A DNA stretch of 64,000 nucleotides from Eledone cirrhosa. Lineage: Eukaryota. The position numbers and the translations under genes are program-made. Every line of letters begins with the position of its first letter. Position 1 is the stretch's first letter. The stretch covers positions 57,784,001-57,848,000 of the forward strand of contig OZ024744.1 in assembly GCA_964016885.1 (NCBI GenBank), given 5' to 3'. Positions 10,801 to 64,000 of the stretch are shown in pieces. The notes under the pieces were generated by a model. That model did not search any database. It had not been told where the DNA came from and saw only the letters and a list, made by a program, of their open reading frames with translations.

Positions 10801-11139
10801 ATTGTTTTTACGTCTGCTTTTCCAAGCTTGTATTAGTAGGACATTATATATATATATATATACGAGGATCGGAATTAAGAGTATTCCGCAGTTCACAGTA
10901 ATAATAATAATATTAGCTCAAAGAAGAATAGAGAATTTTCTTCTGAGCTCAAATACGAATATATTACACAAAGAGAAGCGTGTTACACAGTGAGATGTGT
11001 GTAAAGAATTATTACAAGTGAGTTTAACCGTTACTGTATGGAGAACAATATCTACAGGTTAGCAATTAAATAGAAAAAAACTAAGTCAGAATCAAATCTC
11101 TGAAGTAGAGTTTTAAATTACCAACCTTATAACTATAAG

Positions 11140-11215
11140 TTTGCTGATACGAATCTAGTTCGTTTCACCACAGAAATGTGCAGTTTAACAGCCCACAGGT
11201 TCCTCAGTCAGCAAA
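11140..11215 (-). ncRNA. Intact-looking type I hammerhead ribozyme in a ~390-bp cassette (10862-11250) between TA arrays
   Basis: The minus strand reads tttgctga-CUGAGGA-acc...ggt-GAAA-CGAA-ctaga-UUCG-UA^tcagcaaa. Stem I is a perfect 8 bp, stem III is 5 bp, the core is complete and the triplet is GUA. Confidence 0.9.
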
Positions 11216-11248
11216 TGTGGATTCTGTTCTCGACACATCTAACCTGAT

Positions 11249-11305
<57 letters not shown>

Positions 11306-11399: not shown

Positions 11400-12150
11400 T
11401 TTGCTATTTGCTTATGTTTTGTAACTTAGAGGTTCAATAAAAAGAAATTCCTAAAATATGTACCAGACTGGAAAAATGACTACTGCAATTGATTATAGAT
11501 CAACAAAAAACCATTGAGGGGAAATCATTGCCCCAGCATGGCCACAGTCTAATAATGTTTCTACTTTTGGCACAAGGCCACCAATTACCCCAGTGCATTA
11601 TTAGTGCTTTATTTTATCAACCCATAAGGATGACAAAGTTAAACTCGGTGGGATTTGAACTCAGAACGAAAAGGGCCAAAACATCTTGCTGCAAAGCAAG
11701 GTGTTTGATGCTCCACCAATACTGCCAATCCACTGCCATAGTCTAATAATTGTTTCTACTTTAGGCACAAGGCCAGCAATTATCCAATTGTATTACTGGT
11801 ACTTTATTTTATCGACTCCGTAAGGATGAAAGGCAAAGTTAACCTCGGCGGGATTTGAACTCAGACCATAAAGGGATATAACTTTTTTTTGCTGCAAAGC
11901 ATGGCGTCCGACCCTCTACCGATACTGCCAATCCACCACAGTCTAATAATTGTTTCTAGTATAGGCACAAAGTCAGTAAATTTGGAGGAAGCGGAAGTCG
12001 ATTAAAACAACCCCAGTACATTACTGGTGCTTTATTTTATCGACCATGTAAGGATGAAAAGCAAAGTTAACCTCAGCGGGATTTGAACTCAGACCATAAA
12101 GGGTTGTAACTCCACGCTGCCACAGTCTAATAATGAAATCAGTAAAAGAA
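11400..12150 (-). mobile_element. Tandem cluster of 3-4 SINEs (family with 'gcctttcatcctt..ggggtcgataaaataaagtaccag' central domain)
   Basis: Repeated 'gggatttgaactcaga' (box B, reverse complement) and 'ggcacaaggcca' near 11570, 11765 and 11965. Confidence 0.85.
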
Positions 12151-12997: not shown

Positions 12998-16148
<3,151 letters not shown>

Positions 16149-16166
16149 TATTATTATTATTATTAT

Positions 16167-17725
16167 TTGCATTTATCTTGCTTTATGTTTATACGAGTTA
16201 TCACCAAGTCACAACCAGTGACCTCAAGAGACAACAAGGTCCGCCATGTTCAAGAAAGAACACACATATTCACACATGCATCCTTAGTGTTTAGACTTGT
16301 GATGTACTTATATTGACAGGATCTTCCTTAGTATATGGGCAGTTCCCATTAGTACTATCTTTTGTATTTCTCCTATACGCGGGTTTCCTGGGATTTGCGA
16401 TAAGTAGTCGTTAGACCCCTTAGGTATCATTCCCAGAGCGCCTACAACCACTGGTATTGTTTTAGTTCTCAATTTCCACATTTTTCCAATTTCTATCTCC
16501 AGGTCCTTATACTTGCTCAATTTTTCAAATGTTTTTATAGATACATTCTTGTCTATTGGAACAGACATATCAATTAGCAGGCATACCCTCCTTTGAAAGT
16601 CCTTCAATATTATATCAGGTCTATTTGCATCTATTTTTCGGTCTGTTTGAATGCTAAAGTTCCACAAGATTGAGATGTGATCTTTTTCAAGTATGGGAGG
16701 TGGTTGATGCTCCCACCAATTCTTTTGATGGGGCAGGTCAAAATGCTTGCACATTATCCAATGTATGTATTGTGCAGCTCTGTCATGCCTGTTTAGGTAT
16801 TCGGTTGGAGCTATAGGACTGCACATTGAAATTATATGGTCAATGGTCTCTGGTTGTTTTTTGCATACACGGCATAATGGGCTGCACCCATTTTTTATTA
16901 TGTTGGCTTGGTAATTTTTTGTTGGCAGACACTGATCTTGTGCGGATATAATCAGTCCTTCAGTCTCCGATTTCAGTCCAGAGGATGCCAGCCACTGATG
17001 GGTTAAAGTTTTGTCAACATCAGGATTGTTAGCTCGTTCTGGGTATTTTCCATACAGAGGCTTTTCTTGCCATTTCTTAGCCAGTTTCTGTAGCAGTTCT
17101 TTCTTTGCAGTTACTTTTACCTGCTTTGCTTTTTCTGTGTTTTCCATTTCAGCAGTAAATGGGACTTCTGAAATTTGTAGTCCATTACTGTATCTTTGTG
17201 CATCTTTTGTAATGGAATATGATCTTTTGGTGCTTTCGTATTTCAAAACGAGTTTGATCATCCAATCATGTGATTCCCTTAGATATGTGGATAATCCAAT
17301 TGTTGCAGTTTTCAACGCAATGTCTAACTGGATTAACCCACGTCCTCCTTCTTTCCTAGGGAGATATATTCTATCTATGTCTGCCTTAGGGTGATGCATT
17401 CTGTGCATGGTTAAGAATTTTCGGATTTTTGTATCGAGCCTACGGATCTCTGTGCTTGACCAGTTGATGACATTGTAACTGTAGGTTACTACTGGTATGG
17501 CAAGCGTGTTTATGGCATCGATCCTATTCCTTGCATTCAATTCCATTCTTAAGATTGCTCTGACTCTGCGGTAACATTCCTTCCTTATCCTTTCCCTCAT
17601 TGTCGAGTGCTTGATTCCGTCTCCTTCACAAACACCTAGATATTTGTAAGTTTGTTCTTGATCAAGCTCTCTTATCACGTTCCCCCGATCAAGATTAATG
17701 TCTGAACTCTTCAGCAGCTTTCCTC

Positions 17726-17726
<1 letters not shown>
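16167..17726 (-). mobile_element. R4/Dong-like element copy 2, more strongly 5'-truncated (ORF 16308-17678)
   Basis: Only a handful of amino-acid differences from copy 1. (TTA)n flanks both sides. Confidence 0.92.
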
Positions 17727-17778
<52 letters not shown>

Positions 17779-17779
<1 letters not shown>

Positions 17780-17833
17780 GCAGTTTCAGTAGAGCGTCAG
17801 ACCCCTATGCTTTGCAGCATAGAGTTATGGCTC

Positions 17834-17903
<70 letters not shown>

Positions 17904-18170
17904 GCAGTTTCAGTAGAGCGTCAGACCCCTATGCTTTGCAGCATAGAGTTATGGCTCTTTATGTTCTGAGTTCAAATCCCACCGATGTTAACTTTCCCTT
18001 TCATCCTTACGAGGTCGATAAAATAAAGTACCAGTAATACACTGGGATCGATTTAATCGACTTTCTCTTCACCTTCAAATTGCTGGCCTTGTGCCTAAAG
18101 TAGAAACAATTATTTCTACTATTATTGGTGGTGGTGTAGTAGTAGTGGTAGTGGTGATGGTGGTGTCGGT

Positions 18171-51016: not shown

Positions 51017-52452
51017 ATAATAATAAATTTGAAGACTAAAATCCAAAGAGGGCTCGATAAGGATAAATATATATCAAATATATAAGAACCGTAGAGCAAA
51101 TATTTATTAAAATAACAGATTAAAGTTTAAGCAAAGAATCGCTGCTTTCACCCTTAACGGGATCTTCTGAAAAATAACAAAGTCAATCTGTGATCGCAGA
51201 AGAGAATATTTCAAAAAACGTTGCAACAGGAGGAAGACAGGAAGACGATATTTTGGTTCGTGGAAACGTTCCCTGGCAAAGAACGGGAAAAAACGAATAT
51301 AATACGTCATTATTTGGAGCGGTGAAAAACAATTACACGCAAAGACAGTTGATTGTATTTATTTGTTTTATTCTATATTCTATTTACTATTCACTGTCTG
51401 GCTTCGCTCACTCATCCACACATGTCTGTCTACTAACCTTGTAATTATAAGTATTTATATATTTTATGCCAATTTTAAAATATATTACATTATGATATAG
51501 ATCCTTATTACTTACCGTTTATTATATATAACATTATGATATTTAAACTTTATATATCATGTAAGATGTCTGGATTTTTTAATATTTTAATATTGTAATA
51601 TGTAACATTATGATATTTAGACTTTACATATCATGTTAGATGTCTGTATATTTTTTTCTGTAACATCATATTTTTTCTGTAACATCATAATTGTTCCCTG
51701 TACCATTATAGTTTTTTTGAGTATTATATTATATGATTTATATTTCCTCATTTATTATGTAACCCAGTATGAATCATTTTGTACATATTGTTTATGGTAA
51801 TTTGTTAATATAATGTTAACATTTTATCATTGTATTTCATTGACATCTATATTGTTTCTGTAAATTAACCGGGGATTATCTATTCTACTTTATTATATTG
51901 TATTGAATTATATAATTTTGTTGTTTATTATTTGTTATAAGTGTTTCTTGTAATTATATCATATTATTGCCTCATGTATATTGGGTAGATGTATTAGCAT
52001 TATTTTCACTATTACCATGCTTATTTTTAATATTCAAACTTCTAATAGGGCTTAATTTCTGTGTAATAGAACATAGATATGTGTATTGTTATATGTGTGT
52101 GTGTGTGTGTGCGCGCACATATATACATGTATATATTGTACCTTTTGATTTTTAATTTGGAATTTTAATGTTGGTATAAATATATTATTATTATAATGTA
52201 TTATATTGTGTTATATATAATTCCTGCTCTATATAACCAAATTTGTTTAGATTTAGGTTGGTGGCTTTGGACTATATTTGTAATATGGTTCTTAATGTTA
52301 TCTACATCCTTAGTTATTATAATTTTATTATTTTTATCTTTATTTTCATTTTTATTATCGTATATCTTTGCAAGACATTAGTGTATGTACACTCCATATT
52401 CTTCAGAGTTTCTGGCTTGTATCTGCCGATATTACCTCTTGTTGTTTTGATT

Positions 52453-52490
52453 GCCCTGATGAGTCCTAAATAGGACGAAACATTGTCGGC
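52453..52490 (+). ncRNA. Canonical compact type I hammerhead ribozyme followed by AATAAA
   Basis: gcc-CUGAUGA-GUCCU-aaau-AGGAC-GAAA-C-auu-G-UC^ggc-taataaa. All core nucleotides are intact, the triplet is GUC and stem III is minimal. Confidence 0.92.
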
Positions 52491-52546
52491 TAATAAAAAC
52501 TTTTGATGTATTAAAGGATTCTTTGTTTTACTCTCTTAATTTTTTG

Positions 52547-53019
<473 letters not shown>

Positions 53020-53070
53020 TGAAGAATTATGAAAATAATGATGTATTGAAGGCTTCTTTGATTTATTTTC

Positions 53071-53147
<77 letters not shown>

Positions 53148-53677: not shown

Positions 53678-53839
<162 letters not shown>

Positions 53840-54000
53840 GTAAATATACACGGGTGTGTATGATTGTGTATAGAAGATTATATTAATAAGAGGAATTCCA
53901 ACTTTGTCTGATTTACTCGTTTTATTTACAATCCTTTAAAATATATATAATGGTATTATAATGAAATAGTATGATAGAATATTAAATTCTAAGTGTTAAT

Positions 54001-54039
54001 TGAACAAGCACTTTCATGCTTTCGCAATCTTCAGGTTCA
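54001..54039 (-). ncRNA. Minimal hammerhead (no stem II) in the PLE 3' pseudo-LTR
   Basis: The minus strand reads tgaac-CUGAAGA-ttgc-GAAA-GCAU-gaaa-GUGC-UU^gttca, with a 5-bp stem I and 5-bp stem III. Confidence 0.85.
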
Positions 54040-54419
54040 TAATATGTGGTGACAGTCGAGTTTGCAATTTTCAACTGTAATGAGATGGGTAAATTTCCTA
54101 TCTTTTATACATTTTTTACAGAGAAAAGTGGCTCCAGAATGCTAAGCCCTGTAAACTGTATTTCGACCAATCAGTGTGTAGTTTCACTGAATTACTACAG
54201 CTGATTGGTTTAAGCGTCACGGCTGGTTGAGCATGCTAACGACCAATAGTCATATCCAACGTATCAATTGTTTTGCTATGATGAGAAATGATGAAAATAG
54301 CATTTTCTATTAATCATCACCATCAACATCACTTTTATTATTATTATTGTTGTTGTTGTTGTTGTTGTTTTTAGTGGTCGTGGTCATAGTGGTAGTAGAA
54401 GTAATACCCCTAAACGTTA

Positions 54420-57400
54420 TTATTGTTCATTTAGCTTGGGTTTGAATTTATTAATAAAATTCTTTTCTTTGATTTTTCTCTTGATTTCACTTGGGCTGTG
54501 TAATTTGTAGAATGGGAATATTATAAATATTCCCTGACCACATGTTGCCAGGTGGCCGCTTAGGGGTATCTGACGGACATTTGGGTCTCTGATTTGTTGA
54601 CGGTGTACCCGTGCACGTTCCGATAGTGCATTTCCAGTTTGACCGACATATAGTTCTTCACAATTCGGGCATTTAATGCAGTAAATTAGATTTCTGCTTT
54701 TGCAGTTCATATTTGCATTTGGGAGTATTTTTCCAGTTTTTGTTTTCATATATTGACCGGCGTGTATGGATTGACATGTGCCGCATCGACTATCATTGCA
54801 TTTAGATACAGTGAATGATTGGTCTTTGTTGTTAAGGTCAAAACTTTGCTTTTGTTAGTAATTGCTTCAAATTTTTTGGCTGTCTTTTACTAAGAGTCAA
54901 AGATCGATCTGTGATTAAGCCTTTTAATTCATTACTTTGAGCAATGATCGGTAGGTTTGCTTTGGCAGTGTTGAAGATATTCTGGTGACATGGGTTGTGT
55001 GTCATTATAAATGGTATGACCAGTTCTTGGTTTCTTCTTCCTTGGGTTGTTCTAAGTTGTTGTATAGGTATTTTTATAGCCCGCTATATGCCATTTTCTA
55101 TAAGTAGAGATATGTATTTTTGTTTGAGCAAAAATTCTCTTTGTTCTGTTAGGCGTTTGTATCTTCTACAATGGTACAAATTCTTCTGGCTAGGCAGTAT
55201 GGGATGTTGCGTTTTGTATGAGGTGGATGGTACGACTTAAAATTCAGATATTGATGGGTGTCTGTGTGTTTATAATATATATCCGTGGTAATGGTGGTGT
55301 CGTTTTTGATTATCATTATATCTAGGAATGGTAATTTGGTCCTACTCATCTCTTTTGTGAATTGGAGAGATGGGTCTAAGTTATTCAGGAGGATATTGAA
55401 CTCATCCAGAGTATCTAGAGATTCTGTCCAGATGATGAAACAGTCGTCAAGGTATCTCTTCCAAGATTTTTCAATGTACTTTCTAAAGTCAGTACTATAT
55501 TTTTCCTCTATTTCTTGGTAGAGTTGTTGTTCTAAGTATCCCATTACAGAGTTCGTGTAAACGGGAGCAAACTTCGTTCCCATCGCTGTGCCTCTAATTT
55601 GGATGTAATTCTTTCCATTGAAGAAGAAAGTGTTGTTTTCCAGAATAAGTTTAACTGCGTCTAATATAAATGGCGCTGTGAATCTAATGGGAATCACTTC
55701 ACTATGTTTTTCCACCCAGTATTTAACCGCCTTTATTCCTAAATCATGTGTAATGTTGGTGTAAAGGCTTACCACATCAAAACTGAGTAGAAGTGAATTC
55801 GTTTCCGCGATTTTGGGAAGATGGGACAGGAAGTCGATATCATCCCGGATGAAACTGGGTATATGAATACATAGTGGTTTCAAAATAATGTCAACAAAAT
55901 TGCTTAGACGGTGAGTGGGGCATGTTGGACCAGCTATAATAGGTCTAAGTTTTAAGTCTTTTGGGTGTAATAATTTAATGTACTCACTGTTTTGTTCTCT
56001 TACTGCCAGCTGTATTTCTTTTGACTTGTGAACTTTCGGTAGGCCATACAGGTTGCTGGGTTTCGGCTCAAAATTGGTGATGTAGTCTCTTTCCTTATCA
56101 GTAAATGAGTTGTGGTATTTTGAAGCCAGGTTGTTGATCTTCTTCATGATGTTGTGGTCTATATTTGACGGTATTTCGTGATAGAATGTTGTGTCTTTCA
56201 GTTGTTCCTCAACCAAATCCTTGTAGTATTCAGTATCCATTATAACAACTGCACCCCCTTTATCTGCTTGTTTAATTATTATTGTTTTATCATTTTGTAT
56301 ACGTTTAAGTGCAGACATTTCTGATTTGTTAATGTTTGGCCTAACATTAGTATTATGTCTAAGAGGAAATGTAGACAGGATGTCAATGTATTGGTCGAGA
56401 TAAATATTTCTTCCTTTTGGCGGAGTGAAATTTGATTTATTCTTTACTAGTGATTCATCACTCTCATTATTTTTATCAGCGAAGAATTCTACAAGACGTA
56501 ATTTTCGACAGAATTCTTGGGTATCCTCCTTCAGTTCTTGGTGGTTGACTGTTGGAGTCGGTGTGAATTTCAGTCCTTTTGACAGAATTTGCATTTCATC
56601 ATTGTCAAGATCTCTTTTAGATAAATTAATTATTTTAGGATCTACGTGTACAGCTGTTTTGGGTATGTTTCCTCCTGGAGTTTTTCTTTTTCCGGTTTTT
56701 GTTGTCCTGACGTTAAAAAATGGATTTTTCTCTGTTCAGGATTTATATTCCTGTTGGTGTTCGCTTGATGAACTTTTGGTCGTGATATTATATTTGGTTT
56801 CGTTATGTATTTTGTCGTATTTTTGGTATTCTGTATATTATTTTTCTTCCTGTTAGCATTATTTTTAACAATCTGGGAAAATGACCTAGGTTTGCTTTCA
56901 GGTTTAGATCGTTTTTTCGTCCAGTTTCTTGTGGGCAATCTCTGTTGAGATCTTGAGAGTGATCTGGTTATTCTACGTTTTGTTTCCACATTCCTTGTTG
57001 GTAGTCTCTGTTGAGATCTTGAGAATGATCTCCTGGTTTTACTACTTCTCATGGTCTGGTCAAAGGAATATCTATCGTGTTTGTGCTTTTCGTTCATGTT
57101 GTGTGCGATAGGGTGTTTTTGTAGAAAAAGCGAAGAGTTATTACCGTAGTTCTTCTTTGATTCAAGGTAAGGTGAGTGTTTGTGTTGGCACGTGTTCTGG
57201 CGTATGTTGTGTTGATGAGATTGTCCACTTTTAATGCTTTTTCTCAGGGTTCCAGAGTCTTTACCGTAATTTGCCGCATATTCATCGAGAAATAATTGTT
57301 TCTGCTGCCATACCTTTCTTGATTTGTTTTCTTCTTTTGAGATATCTCCGATCCATAGTTCTCGTAGTTTTTCAGCTATAATACCAGTCGTTAGCTTTGA

Positions 57401-57430
57401 AATTTCAACTTCAATTTGGTCATCAATAGC

Positions 57431-61611: not shown

Positions 61612-62000
61612 TATATATAATGTTTATAGTTAAACAGGGTTATAGGGGAAAATATTCACGATGCCCCATTAGTCTCATTACCCACTCAATGAGACGAGAT
61701 TTCATTACTCACTCAATGAGACAAGATTTCATTACTCACTCAATGATACAAGATTTAAACATATTAAACATGTAAATATATACTCAGAGTGCTTACCAAA
61801 GGTTATTTGTAATGAGTGTGATTGCACATTTTCTCGGACAATGGTTTCCATGATATAGTCTGATAAAGTAAGTATGTTGTAGTGCACCTGAGCACTGTAC
61901 ACAATAATTTTCATTATATTATATTTGAAACTTGTTTCTCAATAGCTACATGGTATAAAAACTACAGACCATCAACTGGGGCTCTCAGCACTTTAGTAGG

Positions 62001-64000
62001 TTGCCATATCCCATCTTAGGAGCGGATTTCCTCCACAACTTCTCTTTAACTGTGGACGTCCGTGGCCAACGCCTGGTGGATAACATCACCGGCTTTTCAA
62101 TTCATGGCCAGGAAGCCAATGCCCCAATAGTCAGCCCCATGTTCTTTATCACTGCCGCTGGAGACGCCTACCATGCGTTACTGGGTTCTTTCCCGGAGCT
62201 CACCGATGGAAATTTTCGAGTCACTGACCCAACACACTCGACCGAACATTTCGTTTCCACCACCGGTGCCCCAGTGTTTTCGCGTCCACGCCGCTTACCG
62301 ACGGAAAAATTAAAGGCAGCACGGTCCGAGTTCGACCATATGCTGCAGCTGGGCATTATTCGCCCATCTACGAGTCCTTGGGCTTCACCGTTACACATGG
62401 TGCCCAAGACTTCCGGCGACTGGAGAACCACTGGGGATTATAGGAGGTTAAATGCCATGACCGTCCCGGATAGGTATCCCATTCCCCATCTCCACGATTT
62501 TGCATCTTCACTGCAGGGGTGTAAGATTTTTTCTAAGTTAGATTTAGTGCGAGCCTACCACCAAATTCCGGTCAGGAAGGAGGATATTCCGAAAACGGCG
62601 ATTACAACCCCTTTCGGATCATTCGAATTTTTTACCATGCCTTTCGGACTCAGAAACGCCGCTAGCACTTTTCAGCGGTTCATAGACGAGATTCACGCGT
62701 GGTCTGGACTTCGTTTATGCTTACATAGACGATATTCTCGTCGCTAGTTCCTCTCCGGAAGAGCATATGCGCCACATGCTTCTCTTATTTCAGCGACTTC
62801 AGGATTACCGCGTTCGTGTGAATCCTACAAAGTGTGTTTTCGGTTCCACTTCCCTACATTTTTTAGGCCACCTCATCGACGCCGAAGGTATTAGGCCGGT
62901 CCCTCAGCGAGTTCAAGCCATACAGGAGTTACCTCCGCCTACTACACTTCACCAGTTGCGTCACTTCTTAGGCCTAATCAATTTCTATAGGCGTTTCATT
63001 CCTCATTGTGCTAATTGGCTATCTTCCCTTACTGACATTTTAAAAAATCGTCGTAAGAAGAATGAAGACATTTCCTTGACACAAGGACAGCTTCAGGACT
63101 TCCAGACTGCCAAGACAGCACTCGCTAGTTCATCTTTGCTAGCCCACCCGGTACCAGAGGCCAAGCTTTCGCTTTGTGTTGATGCATCTGATACCGCTGT
63201 AGGAGCAGTTTTACAGCAGTCTTACGCTGAAAAACAACAACCTTTGGCATTTTTCTCGAGGAAGTTGAAACCAGCAGAAACGCGTTATAGCACGTTTGGG
63301 CGGGAATTATTAGCCATATATCTGTCGGTTAAACATTTCTCTCATATTCTTGAGGGGAGAAATTTTACGGTTTTTACCGACCACAAGCCGTTGACCTTCG
63401 CTTTGAGGGCCAAAGCCGACAGATATTCGCCCAGAGAGACAAGGCACCTGGACTACGTTTCACAATTTACAAACGATATCCAGCACATTGCCGGCTCGCA
63501 TAACATAGTTGCAGACGCATTATCACGTTTGCCAATTAGCTCCATCTCGTCATCCCAGGAGATCGACTTAGGTCGTTTAGCTGCAGACCAACCTGCACTC
63601 CAATCGTTGGACACTCTTTCTACTGAATTTGCGACTTGCATTTTCAAATATCTGCCCTTGTCCACCACCGACAAGCAGATTCTATGTGATGTATCTACTG
63701 ATGCACCACGACCATTTGTTCCTGAGACTCACCGTCGAATTGTGTTCCTGGCTTTGCACAACATTTCTCATCCAGGATCTGCTGCCACAGTTAAACTCAG
63801 TTATACAGCCAGATTCTTCTGGCCAAATATGAGGCGCGACATTGCTGCTTAGTGCCGTTCCTGTATCGCTTGCCAGAAATCGAAGATCCATAGACACATC
63901 GGGACTCCACTTGGTACTTTCAGTACTCCAGATGCTCGGTTCCAACACATCCACATTGACATCGTTGGACCTTGGCCATTCAGCAGTGGATATTCTTACA
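62001..64000 (+). mobile_element. Ty3/Gypsy LTR retrotransposon pol (protease end, RT, RNase H, integrase start); frameshift near 62690, stop at 63850; runs off the window
   Basis: [82 protein letters not shown] and HIDIVGP. Confidence 0.95.

Follow-up and report, generated by a model that had tools for sequence, protein, structure and literature searches.

A 5'-truncated copy of a protein-free hammerhead repeat in Eledone cirrhosa, with insertion ends that point to a Penelope-type enzyme

The DNA analyzed here, referred to as the window, comprises 64,000 nt of the 3.0-Gb genome of Eledone cirrhosa (GCA_964016885.1, contig OZ024744.1, positions 57,784,001-57,848,000 of the forward strand). 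An inserted repeat copy lies on its minus strand at 10859..11250; it covers positions 1-392 of the repeat unit described below, is 5'-truncated and terminates at the distal or tail end of the unit, named end B. At end B, which forms the 3' junction, the (TA)n target spans 10845..10861, where the final three bases of the unit are not separable from the repeat, and the 5' junction is formed by a (TA)27 tract (11251..11305) with a 3-nt microhomology, TAT, to the sequence that normally precedes unit position 1. Along the minus strand, a 5' flank (11216..11240) leads into a type I hammerhead motif (11140..11215), which is followed by an AC-rich hairpin (10983..11004) directly upstream of end A (10950..10956, unit position ~298). 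End A, internal in the window copy, is the alternative 3' end favoured by the family and represents a putative start site of reverse transcription. Immediately past it a GAGCTC...TTGAGCTA hairpin is found (10914..10950), which might serve as recognition signal; the second copy of this motif lies past end B in the full unit and is missing from the window copy, which lacks 150 bp of the unit. An earlier sequence-only reading had described the locus as an ORF-less cassette of ~390 bp flanked by (TA)n. The (TA)n tracts indeed stand on both sides and the longest open frame of the unit does not exceed 95 codons, but the 390 bp are the 5'-truncated part of a 542-548-bp unit and not a whole element. 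The copy shares 97.7% identity with the unit of locus L002 over 392 aligned bp and 93-98% with the 39 next best copies. It is an ordinary insertion and likely a dead end.

The window is rich in other repeats. To the right of the cassette, at 11524-11970, an extremely high-copy short repeat with a 200-bp period (TRF) and a summed contig depth in the millions is probably a SINE-like family. A non-LTR retrotransposon with (TTA)n flanks and an open reverse transcriptase (RT) frame of 772 aa is present in tandem pieces at 13296-17962 on the minus strand, and an LTR-retrotransposon-like pol in two frames, with RT, RNase H and an integrase zinc domain, is found at 61959-63852 on the plus strand.

All ribozyme pieces that the sequence-only reading had named are present on the minus strand. 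Stem I, a descriptor match of 8 bp (11215-11208 with 11147-11140) with an open end, is followed by the CUGAGGA core (11207-11201), a stem II of only 3 bp (11200-11198 with 11169-11167) that closes a 28-nt loop II (11197-11170), the core element GAAA 5' of stem III (11166-11163), and a stem III of 5 bp with a 5-nt loop (11163-11159 with 11153-11149), and the predicted cut after GUA falls between 11148 and 11147. The claim that a chance match is unlikely was borne out, since the hammerhead descriptor matched the window only once, at 11140-11215, and 60 dinucleotide shuffles searched on both strands at four thresholds gave 0 matches. The Rfam hammerhead models do not report 11140-11215 among the 150 of 173 window matches listed, because its long loop II lies outside these models, and a covariance model gave no further match in the 64-kb window. 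Diverged relatives were sought genome-wide by DNA similarity, by pattern and with one Rfam family.

Conservation was assessed in an alignment (A1) of 93 copies, from which 12 of the initial 105 rows were excluded as near-duplicate, broken or partial. The type I core is intact in 80 of the 93 copies; position 7 of the CUGAGGA element is variable (G 73, U 18, A 2), and stem III is paired in 99% of its cells around a variable loop. The first pair of stem II, 10.1-11.1, is Watson-Crick in only 13 copies, the window copy included, and is replaced by U-U in 41, A-C in 27, A-G in 11 and C-C in 1, so that stem II consists of 2 bp and a mismatch in 80 copies. Such short helices are known from active hammerheads, in which stem II can be 1-2 bp long and even begin with U-U (PMC3088659). 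Variants common to at least four copies occur in none of the 12 core columns, in 4 of 30 stem columns, in 5 of 20 columns of the flank-loop helix and in 23 of 66 unpaired non-core columns, and the outer U-A pair of stem I is changed to C-G in 15 of the 93 copies, i.e. in a compensatory manner. Loop III, position 7 and a bulge differ among subfamilies while the core columns do not. The lack of common core variants compared with the 23 of 66 columns elsewhere, together with the compensatory stem I pair, points to selection acting on the ribozyme in the source elements, as judged from related subfamilies with few changes. Dimerization via the palindromic loop III was considered as well and rejected, because this loop varies freely among subfamilies.

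The full extent of the repeat became apparent from tandem copies, in which the sequence continues for ~150 bp past the 3' end of the cassette and then returns to the cassette start. Successive cut sites in four tandem loci are 542, 547, 548 and 547 nt apart, which defines a closed unit of 542-548 bp, and two tandem stretches contain no open frame longer than 95 codons. Hence, the unit is a short non-coding tandem repeat with one type I hammerhead each, as is characteristic of retrozymes. A further hallmark of non-LTR retrozymes is seen at a few family loci, for example L168, and is absent from the window copy with its one hammerhead. The sequence-only reading had proposed a genome search for additional or tandem copies, and both exist: the exact ribozyme-junction pattern is matched 488 times genome-wide (control 0), a 17-mer from the spacer 193 times, and the 389-bp cassette used as query returned 1369 first-look candidates, of which the best 40 scored were 93-100% identical. 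Most copies are dispersed insertions less than two units long. The longest of the 20 loci fetched from the best 40 scored with a two-unit query extends over ~2.2 units, and two same-strand pairs at unit distance occur among the 100 listed of the 488 junction matches. Three contig runs from one sample provided repeat coverage only. At one further locus (L081, G000:C11:5744000-5750500) two inverted element copies stand 2 kb apart and carry the same internal insertion.

The insertion ends were mapped in 122 distinct insertions from 158 loci, a non-random sample because similarity or exact-word matches guided the choice of loci, and one that includes some apparent segmental duplicates. Forward 3' ends fall at A (~298) in 56, at B (~392) in 58 and elsewhere in 8 of the 122 insertions, with 0 at the cut site (103); ends A and B thus lie ~195 and ~290 nt beyond the cut and 94 nt apart. 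A (TA)4 tract follows the 3' end in 111 of the 122 insertions, and the (TA)n flanks mask any target-site duplication (those of retrozymes, if present, would exceed 4 bp). An inverted 5' arm is present in 72 of the 122. Where both ends of an inverted insertion fall at A or B, one of each is used in 50 out of 51 cases, and the same holds for 13 out of 13 in the subset picked by the ribozyme word alone. The 5' ends are scattered, only 2 of 122 being located near the cut (positions 98-108), and forward arms have a median length of 579 bp, with 74 of 122 longer than one unit. The ribozyme junction is always intact in the DNA: a pattern that fuses the cut site to (TA)n is matched 0 times genome-wide, compared with the 488 intact junctions. 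The GAGCTC...TTGAGCTA hairpin stands directly past both ends, with the AC-rich hairpin preceding A. As a repeat within the unit the motif amounts to 11 nt, and its alignment score was reached by 47 of 500 shuffles; its weight comes from its place past each end.

Two alternative 3' ends on opposite sides of inversions, 5' truncation, partial tandems and a microsatellite target are the features by which mobilization through Penelope-like elements (PLEs) can be recognized. PLE insertions are reported to form partial tandems, to carry an inverted 5' copy and a tail at one end, and to prefer microsatellites (PMC8557442, PMC3846280). Moreover, the PLE protein of a lizard, when purified, nicks AT-rich DNA and initiates cDNA synthesis at two positions within the RNA, by which the tail is defined; it uses uncut RNA as template, and the lizard hammerhead cuts only when the protein is present (PMC11167929). 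By analogy with these systems, the insertion pattern is a PLE footprint, and therefore ends A and B probably correspond to starts of reverse transcription.

A candidate enzyme class is present in the genome. The window itself contains a broken endonuclease-bearing (EN+) PLE at 53837-57430 on the minus strand, whose RT was recognized by Pfam and in whose translation a CX4CxxC linker and a GIY-YIG-like end can be read. Its family has 29,169 candidates, many of them with 775-aa open frames and with 96-98% protein identity among the best 150 scored, i.e. it is young, and among the matches listed its members terminate at two sites adjoining (TA)n, carry a minimal hammerhead and optionally have a tail of ~50 bp. 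A further PLE family with 27% endonuclease identity (L225:2112-2720, minus strand) has a minimal-looking hammerhead in its 3' UTR and ends at (TA)n. Given these abundant TA-targeting PLEs, an enzyme class with the right target is present. The PLE family of the window, examined in full, has no significant sequence in common with the unit; a resemblance of the unit to the tail of the window PLE, seen by eye, was dropped, since it was equalled by 128 of 300 shuffles for the tail and by 15 of 300 for the 3' UTR. No autonomous partner was found, and the linked PLE frames that the sequence-only reading had suggested to look for did not appear: among the best-scoring copies fetched, none continues upstream into a PLE reading frame, and none shows the linked RT plus GIY-YIG frame that full-length copies of an autonomous PLE would contain. 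The few PLE protein matches in the flanks stem from other insertions nearby.

The 5' flank of the ribozyme (11216..11240, minus strand) is complementary to nearly all of loop II, with 11 bp in a proximal and 7-8 bp in a distal part, and is predicted to act as a latch. The duplex is estimated at -18.5 kcal/mol, a value equalled by 4 of 1000 shuffled loops, dominates nested folding and appears as a hairpin when 81 nt are transcribed, persisting thereafter. In a 126-nt context the catalytic fold has a probability of ~1e-9 in nested folding models, and it stays below 1e-4 in five shorter contexts. Over the 93 copies a probability above 0.5 is obtained for stem II in 0, for stem I in 17 and for the flank helix in 64-65. 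Since stem II has only 3 bp and loop II is paired to the flank, the ribozyme's own 5' flank is predicted to shift folding away from the catalytic form. The expectation of the sequence-only reading that the ribozyme should cleave as a monomer thus finds no support in these folding models and free monomer cleavage appears doubtful, which is a doubt and not a refutation, because nested models leave pseudoknots and tertiary contacts unscored. A rough estimate places the pseudoknotted state at -18 to -20 kcal/mol, i.e. 12-14 above the blocked state at -32. The 11 bp of the proximal part lie directly against stems I and II, where they could play the role of a pseudoknot; stem I-stem II pseudoknots are used by ~40% of hammerheads (PMC3088659). 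The transcript proposed for in vitro cleavage (11120-11240) keeps most of the flank predicted to block the ribozyme, and an assay with it could be falsely negative. Covariation between flank and loop is thin within the family: G29 occurs with C59 in 13 copies (G29 in 16, C59 in 15), which corresponds to one subfamily change, pair 31-58 is broken in 16 of the 93, and the share of paired cells in the helix over the 93 copies is no better than in shuffles (460 of 500).

Comparison with an older sister family gives stronger support for the latch. This family was reached via the hairpin-motif pattern (17 matches, control 0) and comprises 1140 candidates with 83-91% identity among 39 non-self places scored. 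It forms a closed 515-bp unit with two ends 79 nt apart and inverted arms. The end-A region of both units is homologous (0 of 500 mononucleotide shuffles), including the AC-rich hairpin, the spacer is weakly alike (6 of 500), and the ribozyme regions align at chance level (154 of 500 mononucleotide shuffles). Nevertheless, the long loop II of the sister hammerhead also pairs with its flank, and in six copies this pairing was equalled by 2, 2, 6, 6, 20 and 127 shuffles out of 1000; inspection by eye showed the same pairing with altered bases in a further diverged copy (L234). Many sister loci (L228, L240-L269) have CCGAUGA, with C at core position 4, in place of CUGAUGA, and at least seven share flanks as apparent segmental duplicates. 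A second hammerhead family of the window lies at 51400-52640 on the plus strand, with its hammerhead at 52450-52494 (Rfam RF00163, 37.8 bits) and an inverted piece at 52922-53073. More than 1 kb of AT-rich non-coding DNA lies upstream of it, its two 3' ends at (TA)n are separated by ~108 nt, inverted arms occur as well, and the first end is followed by a GGCTC...TTGAGCTA hairpin; six longer stretches contain no PLE frame upstream of its hammerhead. Its overall alignment to our unit was not significant, being equalled by 232 and 284 of 300 shuffles, and the short hairpin motif alone is common to both. In addition, a ~440-bp tandem hammerhead repeat resides inside a truncated PLE of another family (L209:1400-2430, also L206 and L225).

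Collectively, our data make it quite probable that the window copy is a 5'-truncated member of a ~545-bp protein-free hammerhead repeat that was reverse-transcribed into (TA)n by a borrowed Penelope-type enzyme, with a ribozyme predicted to be held off by its 5' flank. The element is of a known kind, namely non-LTR retrozyme-like and likely PLE-mobilized, with an unusual ribozyme variant. Its cycle would begin with transcription of a copy longer than one unit. In the nascent RNA, pairing of the flank with loop II is predicted to precede synthesis of the ribozyme's 3' half, and therefore cleavage should be slow until the distal helix opens. This opening is perhaps aided by a protein, after which the proximal part would form the stem I-loop II pseudoknot. 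A dimer in which both ribozymes cut would yield a monomer or circle of ~545 nt. A PLE protein with RT and GIY-YIG domains may bind the GAGCTC hairpin and nick TA-repeat DNA, and the cDNA would start within the RNA at end A or B; a second priming at the other site would give the inverted arm. The cDNA would then run back through an uncut or re-ligated ribozyme and usually halt within two units. The template may be uncut linear RNA or a circle. As circular monomers, the units gave z values of -3.4, -3.1, -1.5 and -4.5 relative to shuffles, i.e. three of four fold better.

Three other explanations have to be weighed against this reading. The strongest of them, which we nevertheless regard as unlikely, is a classical active retrozyme with a pseudoknotted high-speed hammerhead, free monomer cleavage and abundant circles as templates. 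It would agree with the frequency of pseudoknots and the short, U-U-started stem II of known hammerheads, with a proximal flank helix that adjoins stems I and II exactly as a pseudoknot would, with the circle-compatible forward arms of more than one unit, and with the folding of circular monomers. However, all but ~4 nt of loop II are engaged by the flank, which likely competes with stem II, the typical long arrays were not seen in the loci sampled, and the 5' ends show no accumulation at the cut; furthermore, one of nine frog retrozyme dimers was reported to be cleaved in vitro (bioRxiv 10.64898/2026.07.22.740005). Rather improbable is the assumption that the hammerhead is a relic, dead throughout the family, and that the element spreads without cleavage. 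The weak stem II with its frequent mismatch, the C at core position 4 in the sister family and the cleavage-independent insertion by PLE protein in vitro (PMC11167929) are in line with it, but the core columns free of common variants, when compared with the variable loop III, position 7 and bulge of the subfamilies, and the compensatory change in stem I argue against a dead ribozyme.

The sequence-only reading had left the choice between retrozymes and solo pseudo-LTRs, and it is the retrozyme-like part that stands. As a solo pseudo-LTR the cassette would be the 3' end of an autonomous PLE that lost its coding part by 5' truncation. PLE pseudo-LTRs do carry hammerheads (PMC4209133), with the same tail and inversions, and a rare full-length master could escape searches in which the 40 best candidates were scored per DNA query. 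Yet the unit returns to its own start within ~150 bp and closes on itself, no upstream PLE frame exists in the sampled copies, and none of these, including the 20 loci fetched with the two-unit query, has a common non-unit sequence upstream. Moreover, animal PLE hammerheads are described as minimal and without stem III (PMC4209133), compared with 5 bp here, and the PLE matches in the flanks have the separate origin mentioned above, which makes this origin very improbable.

The predicted self-blocking could explain the insertion of uncut RNA. A more far-reaching idea, which is tentative and at present rather doubtful, is that a clan of mini-retroelements exists in which the zipper between the whole of loop II and the flank is an off-switch freed by the Penelope protein and the duplicated GAGCTC hairpin is the minimal start signal for the Penelope enzyme. 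Were this correct, the ends of their insertions would prove directly, from genomic data, that Penelope machinery mobilizes animal retrozymes and that uncut or circular RNA is the source. No literature description of the family or of its hammerhead architecture was found in main texts, supplements and Repbase/Dfam aside, and the available part of the octopus repeat annotation does not mention ribozymes (PMC13282606). The supplements of retrozyme and hammerhead papers list many hammerhead families, hence this one may be among them and already catalogued.

With regard to known systems, the family resembles pseudoknotted hammerheads (Perreault et al. 2011, PMC3088659) in the pairing of the stem I side with loop II, the very short stem II and U-U at 10.1-11.1 (here 41 of 93), and differs in a pairing of ~18 bp in two or three segments compared with the 4-6 bp reported there and in the additional A-C (27) and A-G (11) at this position. 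It shares with EN+ PLEs and their pseudo-LTRs the 5' truncation, partial tandems, inverted 5' arm, optional tail at one end and (TA)n bias (PMC8557442, PMC3846280, PMC11167929), as well as a hammerhead upstream of two internal start sites and an AC-rich hairpin near the start. In contrast to these elements the unit has no RT or GIY-YIG frame, its tail measures 94 nt and not 30-40, and where their hammerhead is minimal, that of the unit possesses a complete stem III together with a 28-nt loop II. Non-autonomous PLEs of Chlamys such as MRC1 are likewise non-coding and form pseudo-LTRs and head-to-tail insertions (PMC8557442); they are described as sharing 3' sequence with autonomous families and as mostly lacking hammerheads, whereas here a hammerhead is present and no partner was found.

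The family works most like the metazoan non-LTR retrozymes, which are described as short units in tandem that bear type I hammerheads, PLEs being their candidate mobilizer (PMC7229834; bioRxiv 10.64898/2026.07.22.740005). As in these, the unit is short, low in GC (35-37%), protein-free, arranged head-to-tail and equipped with one type I hammerhead, no LTR features were seen, and PLEs co-occur. Its size lies inside the range of 51-972 bp (Li et al. 2026, bioRxiv 10.64898/2026.07.22.740005) and above the 150-450 bp given for retrozymes by Cervera and de la Pena (2020, PMC7229834). Different from metazoan retrozymes, the copies are dispersed and mostly shorter than two units rather than arrayed. 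Moreover, the ribozyme is predicted to block itself, unlike that of most retrozyme circles from metazoans, for which a free ribozyme is predicted; self-blocking is reported for plant retrozymes and viroids and not for most animal ones (bioRxiv 10.64898/2026.07.22.740005). Finally, mobilization of animal retrozymes by PLEs has so far been argued from co-occurrence and sequence kinship (PMC7229834; bioRxiv 10.64898/2026.07.22.740005), whereas the insertion ends described here bear an explicit PLE footprint. Because this footprint is seen at base resolution in a coding-free unit, the family offers a small test substrate with two mapped start sites, a candidate recognition hairpin past both of them and a ribozyme that is predicted to be self-blocked.
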